DNA of 64,000 nucleotides from an uncultured bacterium (GTDB lineage Bacteria; Omnitrophota; Omnitrophia; Omnitrophales; Abzuiibacteriaceae): NCBI GenBank assembly GCA_964387845.1, contig CAYLXA010000004.1:32001-96000 (forward strand), written 5' to 3'. The notes beneath the pieces are model-generated. The model was not told where the DNA came from. It did not search any database and worked only from the letters and a program-made list of their open reading frames with translations. Within the stretch, counting starts at the first letter, position 1. Each line of letters starts with the position of its first letter. Shown piece by piece: positions 15,272 to 15,686 of this stretch. The translations under genes were made by a program, and so were the position numbers.

Positions 15272-15307
15272 CCCTCTCCCTTTTTAAGGGAGAGGGTAGG
15301 GTGAGGG
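15272..15307. repeat. REP-like GC palindrome (ccctctccc-tttta-agggagaggg-ta-gggtgaggg), upstream flank of the DUF559 gene.
   Basis: Read directly. Same family as the elements at 15643, 16204, 28035 and 29456. Confidence 0.75.
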
Positions 15308-15311
15308 TTTT

Positions 15312-15686
15312 GTGAATCAAATTTTAAAAACGTTATCCAGAAACTTAAGAAAAAATCAGACTGATTCCGAAAGAAAGCTTTGGTATTTCCTAAGAAACCG
15401 GCAATTTTTAGATCTAAAATTCCGCAGGCAATACAAGATCGGAAAATATATTGTTGATTTTTGTTGTGTTGAAAAAATGCTGGTAATTGAATTAGATGGC
15501 GGACAACATAATGAAAATAAACCGGATAAAATTCGAGAACTGTATTTGAAAGCATGCGGTTATCGCATTCTTCGTTTCTGGGATCATGAATTGTTAAATG
15601 AAACCGATGTTGTTTTAGAAAAAATCCACTCGATTTTGGAATCCCTCACCCTTGATCCCTCTCCCAAAGGGAGAGGGAAGAAATAA
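15312..15686 (+). CDS. DUF559 / Vsr-like endonuclease domain protein
   Basis: RKLWYFLRNRQ ... FRRQ ... IVDF ... LVIELDGGQH pattern typical of DUF559. GTG start. Flanked by inverted REP-like palindromes. Confidence 0.75.
   Translation: MNQILKTLSRNLRKNQTDSERKLWYFLRNRQFLDLKFRRQYKIGKYIVDFCCVEKMLVIELDGGQHNENKPDKIRELYLKACGYRILRFWDHELLNETDVVLEKIHSILESLTLDPSPKGRGKK
15643..15677. repeat. REP-like GC palindrome (ccctcaccc-ttgat-ccctctccc-aaa-gggagaggg), downstream flank inside the 3' end of the DUF559 ORF. It is inverted relative to the upstream copy.
   Basis: Read directly. Confidence 0.75.

Follow-up and report, generated by a model that had tools for sequence, protein, structure and literature searches.

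The palindromic repeats known from earlier work as BoxC and PIT elements (Bachellier et al and Hoyne et al, as cited in PMC4666352) are the same as the more recently defined TMECO motif with the pattern CCCTCNCCC-N3-6-GGGNGAGGG-N3-GGGNGAGGG (Holder et al, 2015, PMC4666352). A census of this motif counted 3610 copies among 262 genomes of proteobacteria and found many others in cyanobacteria, with copy numbers depending strongly on the strain. No transposase, integrase or other mobility function was seen near the copies, which were reported as always intergenic in E. coli; the motif is also a marker of unstable loci and adopts stable triplexes in vitro (PMC4666352). Here, we describe a 406-bp cassette in which a gene of the DUF559 nuclease family lies between two inverted copies of this palindrome. 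It was found in a 64,000-nucleotide (nt) stretch of a contig from an uncultured Omnitrophota bacterium (CAYLXA010000004.1, positions 32,001 to 96,000; hereafter the window). The cassette and the dispersed repeats very probably belong to one evolutionary family, and we lean towards regarding the cassette as a gene-carrying member of the BoxC/PIT/TMECO palindromes with the nuclease as partner. The preliminary description of this DNA had stated that the pairing of DUF559 with palindromes is not an established mobilisation system, and in the literature searched we found no published link of DUF559 or ycjD, the DUF559 gene of E. coli, to BoxC/PIT/TMECO or such palindromes.

Two further systems are close. 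As with REP/REPIN elements and their RAYT genes, a single gene stands between inverted copies of a dispersed palindrome, gene-less inverted doublets exist, target duplications are not general, and the dispersed copies are similar to the ends of the resident gene. In contrast to these, the enzyme here is a PD-(D/E)XK hydrolase of the Vsr fold instead of an IS200/IS605-type HUH tyrosine transposase, the arms are near-invariant across phyla and not species-specific, the gene changes locus, and copies lie within coding sequences. The homing endonuclease I-Bth0305I (Vsr-fold EDxHD, PDB 3R3P), the best characterised structural match, is also a small selfish nuclease gene with presence/absence polymorphism, and presence or absence at orthologous sites is what the DUF559 cassette shares with homing endonuclease genes. 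Whereas I-Bth0305I is intron-borne (group I) and has an additional domain for DNA binding, the DUF559 gene is free-standing, has its own inverted repeats and inserts where the repeat was absent.

The cassette consists of the following features, given in window positions:

15272..15677, + strand: whole cassette, 406 bp; block common to relatives at other loci and missing from empty orthologous sites
15272..15307, + strand: left three-armed palindrome (TM, + orientation); arms CCCTCTCCC at 15272-15280, GGGAGAGGG at 15288-15296 and GGGTGAGGG at 15299-15307
15312..15686, + strand: DUF559 open reading frame (ORF; YcjD-like, Vsr-fold PD-(D/E)XK), 124 aa, GTG start
15643..15677, - strand: right three-armed palindrome (TM, inverted); arms CCCTCACCC at 15643-15651, CCCTCTCCC at 15657-15665 and GGGAGAGGG at 15669-15677

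The left flank reads CCCTCTCCC-TTTTTAA-GGGAGAGGG-TA-GGGTGAGGG and the right flank CCCTCACCC-TTGAT-CCCTCTCCC-AAA-GGGAGAGGG, which, loops aside, is the reverse complement of the left one, giving the cassette terminal inverted repeats of about 36 nt each. The arrangement is as the preliminary description had it, except for the length of about 415 bp, which is reached by running to the stop codon of the ORF and not by the palindrome-bounded unit. Residues ~112-124 of the protein are encoded within the right palindrome. The last arm of the left palindrome ends 4 nt 5' of the GTG start, and this G-rich arm is probably the Shine-Dalgarno sequence of the gene. Terminal inverted repeats are shared with miniature inverted-repeat transposable elements and related transposons; a target-site duplication, which would also be expected of these, was not found at the window cassette. 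Gene neighbours and Pfam matches revealed no transposase gene in the cassette or adjoining it, and no intrinsic terminator or promoter was predicted in or beside it that would give the palindromes such a role.

The hairpin CCCTCTCCC-N2-12-GGGAGAGGG occurs five times in the window versus 0.00 times expected (100 shuffles), and the count of arms with no more than one mismatch is 21 versus 7.4 +/- 2.8 expected. Computed as single-stranded DNA, the window palindromes fold into hairpins with z-scores of -2.5 to -6.7. Judged by its letters, the palindrome is the already known BoxC/PIT/TMECO “triplex motif”: the arms (CCCTCNCCC, GGGNGAGGG, GGGNGAGGG) are identical, and the three-armed polarity, the inverted pairs and the strain-variable copy number are shared, as is the ending of a DUF559 gene, ycjD, in the motif in E. 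coli itself. Published loops measure 3-6 and 3 nt, whereas those of the window measure 7 + 2 nt on the left and, on the other strand, 3 + 5 nt on the right; the cassette ends are loop-length variants of TMECO. Furthermore, the E. coli copies are reported as always intergenic and as lacking a mobility gene, while here copies lie in frame within genes and a nuclease gene is framed. The palindrome that the preliminary description had named “REP-like” belongs to this known family. A search for a known RNA family to which the palindromes might belong detected only two tRNAs in the window.

The closest homolog of the DUF559 protein (78% at the amino acid level, locus L001) is encoded at a different locus, between the 5-formyl-tetrahydrofolate (FTHF) cyclo-ligase gene and ymdB, an insertion site that is absent from the window. 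DNA homology between the two cassettes begins at the left CCCTCTCCC and stops just past the right GGGAGAGGG, that is, at the outer palindrome ends, substantiating the earlier view of the flanks as terminal inverted repeats of a discrete cassette. The same homology limits were found in many inter-genus pairs among 80 DUF559 loci (one genome per species), in which a few confamilial pairs are syntenic (L014/L071, L032/L052 and L050/L058). The arms of the left palindrome are identical in the window, L001 and L086; between the window and L001, 54 of 54 arm bases agree and the loops differ, despite saturated synonymous sites in the gene.

The junctions at which cassettes were found could be compared among relatives. 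In the window, the junction is formed by these neighbours:

14822..15238, + strand: upstream neighbour yjbQ (UPF0047); its stop overlaps the start of the downstream gene in the empty-site relatives L212 and L213
15686..17800, + strand: downstream neighbour, membrane/TPR protein, 704 aa; its start codon overlaps the DUF559 stop (TAATG)

The state of the two junctions is as follows:

Window and L334: yjbQ/TPR junction with cassette; FTHF-ligase/ymdB junction with four-armed solo copy (L334)
L086 and L335/L336 (same run series): yjbQ/TPR junction with cassette; FTHF-ligase/ymdB junction empty, 12-bp spacer (L335)
L212 and L213: yjbQ/TPR junction empty, no palindrome; FTHF-ligase/ymdB junction not seen
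L001: yjbQ/TPR junction not seen; FTHF-ligase/ymdB junction with cassette

The comparison of orthologous sites that the preliminary description had proposed therefore yielded filled and empty sites for both insertions. YjbQ of the filled relative L086 is 95% identical to that of the window, and those of the empty relatives L212 and L213 are 93% and 92% identical; YjbQ matches at 87-89% identity are not syntenic with the window locus. Because the empty sites have no palindrome, the cassette arrives together with both palindromes. L334 comes from the same run as a contig identical to the window's cassette and, on account of this shared run, probably belongs to the window organism. Compared with L335 (617-628), L334 (603-665) carries a clean 56-bp four-armed insertion in the 12-bp spacer, flanked by a 7-bp direct duplication, ATGATTA, which is the sole case among 13 four-armed elements. 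The same spacer has been struck twice in different lineages, by the solo copy in L334 and by the cassette in L001. Gain and loss affect the block as a whole, and its arms stay constant at the DNA level across phyla.

Two observations concern the surroundings of the yjbQ/TPR junction. In the empty-site relatives (L212 1080-1175, L213 1572-1660), the downstream gene is longer by ~22 residues at its N-terminus; the DNA for these residues is a palindromic stretch of the type GCGGAATG.../CACTCCGCAC that may be a further in-frame element at this junction. Next to the cassette, at window 15249-15260, a second family of small palindromic repeats was seen (GTCATTGCGAG / CTCGCAATGAC, GAAGCAATC...GATTGCTTC), which is also present in L086, both at ~4880-4900 and inside the TPR-gene ortholog, where the copy is in frame and encodes ...GLLRRFTPRNDG....

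The 80 loci span Desulfobacterota, Gamma-, Beta- and Alphaproteobacteria, Dehalococcoidia, Nitrospirota, Omnitrophota, Atribacterota and others. Allowing at most one mismatch per arm, the three-armed motif was found upstream of the DUF559 gene at 50 loci, downstream at 48, on both sides at 39 and on at least one side at 59, compared with a background arm density of 0.28 per kb beyond 300 bp of the gene. The arms always follow the order C-G-G upstream of the gene and C-C-G downstream, and the inner G arm is often separated from the start codon by 3-12 nt. Among the 119 closest homologs of the window protein (Omnitrophota, Elusimicrobia, Pseudomonas and many metagenomes), 96 have a C-terminal tail that is a translated C-rich arm, read in all three frames (PSP, PLP, xLSx) and usually followed by GRG, GEG or RER; 19 also start with an arm translation. 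Since one DNA word is used in three reading frames, it is the DNA and not the peptide that is conserved. A tandem array of about six CCCTCTCCCC-GC-GGGGCGAGGG hairpin units was also seen in a Rhodocyclaceae genome (L008 1396-1669), 1.3 kb upstream of a DUF559 cassette.

DUF559 is a very large family of unknown function (at least 7993 matches at E <= 0.001) whose members are routinely mis-annotated as “very-short-patch-repair endonuclease”. The window ORF matches its Pfam profile (PF04480) with E = 1e-38 and 132 bits (cut-off 20.6). DUF559 and MTES_1575 were its only Pfam matches, with none to the HUH tyrosine transposases (IS200/IS605-like). NCBIfam PRK09767 scored 101 bits, which is under the equivalog cut-off of 218, so that the window protein is not a YcjD equivalog. 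PDB 3HRL was matched at E = 1e-24. The AlphaFold model has a predicted local distance difference test score (pLDDT) of 87.6, its palindrome-encoded tail being low-confidence and predicted disordered. In Foldseek, the top match was again 3HRL, a DUF559 structure without characterisation (TM-score 0.91), followed by I-Bth0305I (E = 8.5e-6), with Vsr far behind (E = 0.23). On this model, the protein can be assigned a Vsr-like alpha/beta nuclease fold with confidence. The residues D49, D62 and H66 are invariant in 46 sequences, and the ratio of nonsynonymous to synonymous rates (dN/dS) between the window and L001 is 0.106 at a dS of ~1.4, at which synonymous sites are saturated; as read from the codons, the gene is under strong purifying selection. 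In the one functional study that we came across, a DUF559 protein of Caulobacter is reported to provoke the SOS response and in vivo DNA damage (PMC12907096), which is indirect evidence of nuclease activity. We rejected the assignment as a Vsr repair endonuclease, with which the protein shares the fold superfamily: there is no match to Pfam Vsr (PF03852), and the neighbours are yjbQ and the gene for the TPR membrane protein with no adjacent cytosine methyltransferase. A known anti-phage defence protein was rejected as well, with 0 PADLOC families matched.

The preliminary description had listed solo copies of the cassette palindrome elsewhere in the window. Further copies do exist, at the following sites:

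16204..16289, + strand: double palindrome (outer-left arm, hairpin, 15-nt spacer, hairpin, outer-right arm), in frame in the 704-aa gene
28035..28091, + strand: four-armed palindrome, in frame in HATPase_c of the histidine kinase 26878-28305
29456..29509, + strand: four-armed palindrome, in frame at the same position in the next paralog kinase, 28302-29735

They are, however, double or four-armed (CCCTCACCC-CCCTCTCCC-GGGAGAGGG-GGGTGAGGG, with the outer CCCTCACCC/GGGTGAGGG around the inner CCCTCTCCC/GGGAGAGGG), whereas each cassette end is three-armed, and all three sites lie in frame within ORFs and are not intergenic as reported for TMECO in E. coli. As the window copies are intragenic, the label “REP” (extragenic) is unsuitable for them. 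The right palindrome of the cassette shares 90% identity with the element at 28034-28073 over a length of 40 nt. The double element encodes NPHPNPLPQVGEGIKEVFPRPVGERGRVRG and is missing from the L086 and L212 orthologs, indicating a recent in-frame gain; its arrangement is in the opposite order to gene-less doublets of the REPIN type. The kinase copies add 12-13 residues and sit in paralogs 1-2 of four tandem histidine kinases, not in 3-4, with the long loop on opposite sides, as if they were mutually inverted. The peptides added by the in-frame palindromes are of the PHPxPLPxGEG and SLSLRERE types. Palindromic elements that are short and lie in frame in protein-coding genes without destroying them are familiar from Rickettsia, and their sequence is unrelated to that of the window palindrome. 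We know of no nuclease gene associated with the Rickettsia elements.

Gene-less derivatives of the cassette were also found. L070 carries two gene-less inverted doublets that match ~75 bp of each cassette end, with ~13 nt in place of the gene, and such doublets are present in viral and metagenome loci as well. A solo copy in L027 is identical to the right end of its cassette (35/35), in betaproteobacterial loci a variant outer arm GGGAGAGGG and loop are common to cassette and solo copies, and in the window's lineage the inner loop TTKAT is common to the right end of the cassette, the kinase-1 copy and the L334 copy. Across nine loci, solo copies are nearer to the palindromes of their own cassette than to those of other loci (rank 0.17 versus 0.5 expected, p = 0.008), a resemblance to which common ancestry and base composition could contribute. 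By these comparisons, gene-less doublets, four-armed and single copies are dispersed in the same genomes, some of them in frame in genes, and solo copies outnumber cassettes by ~30-70 to 1. The double element missing from orthologs and the clean L334 insertion versus L335 mark the solo copies as mobile.

In E. coli K-12, ycjD (L005, NC_000913.3 1351200-1351760) ends with ...SPSP* in CCCTCTCCC, followed by a decayed partner; a full TMECO lies ~170 bp downstream, together with a 40-nt partial duplicate of the ycjD 3' end. The gene is present in 3377 of 5426 complete E. coli genomes. Between fabI and sapF, it takes the place of the eef (efflux) operon in phylogroups A, B1 and C; the replacement occurred separately in two other sequence types (PMC12817139). 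In sampled genomes, the number of further motif sites was 12-28 (median 20) in ycjD-positive and 1-20 (median 4) in ycjD-negative strains (Mann-Whitney p = 3e-9); the ycjD-negative strain JJ1887 has one motif, unrelated to the ycjD locus. A strict co-occurrence of ycjD and motif within the species was rejected, the trend being positive and confounded by phylogroup and motifs persisting without ycjD.

We tentatively propose that DUF559 could be the missing trans-acting partner of BoxC/PIT/TMECO and the cassette a minimal, ~400-bp nuclease-only selfish element, spread by break-and-repair, that seeds palindromes and writes peptide insertions into proteins. In the nuclease-partner reading towards which we lean, the promoterless cassette of one small Vsr-fold nuclease gene between two inverted three-armed palindromes would produce a nuclease whose target is the palindrome, in the form of a duplex, an extruded hairpin or a triplex, at which it would nick or cut. 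Host repair or replication would then copy or insert palindromes and occasionally the whole cassette, so that the nuclease may drive the mobility of the repeats. The route would be homing-endonuclease-like and would not need strand-transfer chemistry; the relation would be analogous to that of RAYT with REP/REPIN, with a hydrolytic nuclease instead. Because a hydrolase alone cannot transpose DNA, a homing-like, repair-dependent route is the most economical, and the lack of general target duplications fits either this route or a REP/RAYT-like single-strand route. The purine-rich arms may provide a ribosome-binding site both to the nuclease gene and to the gene downstream of it, whose ATG follows the last arm of the right palindrome by 8 nt, and an insertion at an operon junction would thereby be tolerated.

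A number of points weigh against the nuclease as the partner of the palindromes. A hydrolytic nuclease is incapable of strand transfer and would have to delegate mobility to host functions. As the empty sites have no palindrome, simple homing into existing repeats fails for the insertion of the cassette. Cassette junctions are unclean: 34 (window) and 13 (L001) additional nt stand on the left, and the downstream gene has a remodelled N-terminus. Target-site duplications are absent at 12 of the 13 four-armed elements and no commoner than in controls at 280 isolated three-armed elements, and were rejected as a general hallmark. A DUF559 gene on the inward side is rare among exact motifs, with 2 of 144 cases in viral and 5 of 157 in metagenome contigs (about 1-3%), a weak link that is to be expected from a family dominated by gene-less copies. 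Carriage by plasmids or phages was rejected as the transfer route in the spread across phyla because the gene is rare on both (39 of 72,556 plasmid and 1 of 50,697 phage records). The E. coli trend in motif number fits a nuclease partner but is confounded by phylogeny, and O157:H7 still has 12 motifs without ycjD. The preliminary description had named two observations that would speak against the link, DUF559 copies lacking palindromes and palindromes equally frequent without DUF559. Both were made in part: most loci have a three-armed motif on at least one side but 7 of the 80 lack any hairpin on either side, and motifs persist in ycjD-negative E. coli but at lower numbers. The link is not refuted by them.

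Other explanations divide the evidence differently. An unidentified transposase or recombinase might move the palindromes in trans, with DUF559 as cargo fixed between two ends. The single 7-bp ATGATTA duplication at a clean solo insertion is typical of a transposase and keeps a trans-acting one in play; most motifs lie far from any DUF559 gene, those of E. coli persist without ycjD, and a 124-aa hydrolytic nuclease is unlikely to be a complete transposase. We still regard this as unlikely, given that one cargo family with the same ends and the same orientation in many phyla is unexpected for random cargo, that no transposase gene lies in or beside the cassette, and that duplications are otherwise absent (12 of 13 four-armed) or at control level (280 three-armed elements). 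DUF559 might instead be a host repair nuclease that resolves palindrome hairpins or triplexes, the flanking copies being binding or autoregulatory sites and the repeats spreading by replication slippage or recombination. The strong purifying selection, the Vsr-type fold, the syntenic, vertically inherited copies (L014/L071, L032/L052, L050/L058) and the triplexes that are stable in vitro and mark unstable loci (PMC4666352) would all suit such a role. It is nevertheless improbable in view of the patchy distribution, the different loci in close relatives with filled and empty sites, the tolerated loss from whole E. coli phylogroups (PMC12817139) and the two palindromes that, as exact boundaries, accompany the gene whenever it moves.

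The position of the arms also suggests a reading in which the palindromes are cis elements, combining a ribosome-binding site with mRNA-stabilising hairpins, and the solo copies are decayed cassettes. At many loci, 3-12 nt separate the inner G-rich arm from the start codon, the right arm precedes the downstream ATG by 8 nt, the cassette has neither promoter nor terminator, and ycjD of E. coli has a decayed end, with part of its 3' region duplicated next to a motif. We consider this reading very unlikely: solo copies exceed cassettes by ~30-70 to 1 and are clean new insertions within genes and in the 12-bp spacer, and ribosome binding accounts neither for the presence of a third arm nor for the invariance of nine-base arms across phyla. 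That palindromes merely tend to land beside DUF559 genes by chance or at hot spots is scarcely credible and already disfavoured. Hot spots do exist, as the FTHF-ligase/ymdB spacer was struck by both a solo copy and a cassette, but they do not account for the fixed orientation and order on both sides at 39 of 80 loci, for homology limits between loci that coincide with the palindrome ends, or for empty sites without palindromes.

In the window, the DUF559 gene is part of a co-oriented run bcp-yjbQ-DUF559-TPR protein, the 704-aa product of the last gene being TPR/glycosyltransferase-like. Several other repeats were noted. Repeats with a period of 7/14 nt (GCnnCAAGC...), partly palindromic, occur at 16389-16487, 23341-23425 and 39974-40110; one of them lies within the 704-aa gene, where the L086 ortholog has a different sequence. 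A non-coding repeat of ~300-400 bp is present in three copies (13290-13690, 17852-18215 and 49086-49385), with segments 92-95% identical, internal inverted repeats and no Rfam match. AT-rich inverted repeats of the AATTTCAAATATCAAA type are intergenic and upstream of operons (14248-14344, 26360-26465, 40337-40442 and 51132-51230). The window also contains two giant ORFs, 52-13290 (4412 aa) and 18413-24916 (2167 aa).

The arrangement described here is best seen as REP/RAYT-like, with a different class of enzyme, with arms invariant across phyla and with intragenic copies. Decades of cataloguing in more than 260 genomes had left the BoxC/PIT/TMECO palindromes without an origin, and the cassette offers a candidate partner gene; the link would give both the palindromes and the DUF559 family a testable function. 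It would explain the common PSPxGRG, PLPxGEG and RERE tails of predicted proteins, and the elements are seen to insert in frame into working genes. With the nuclease as partner of the palindromes, the cassette may represent a second, mechanistically different example of the REP/RAYT principle.

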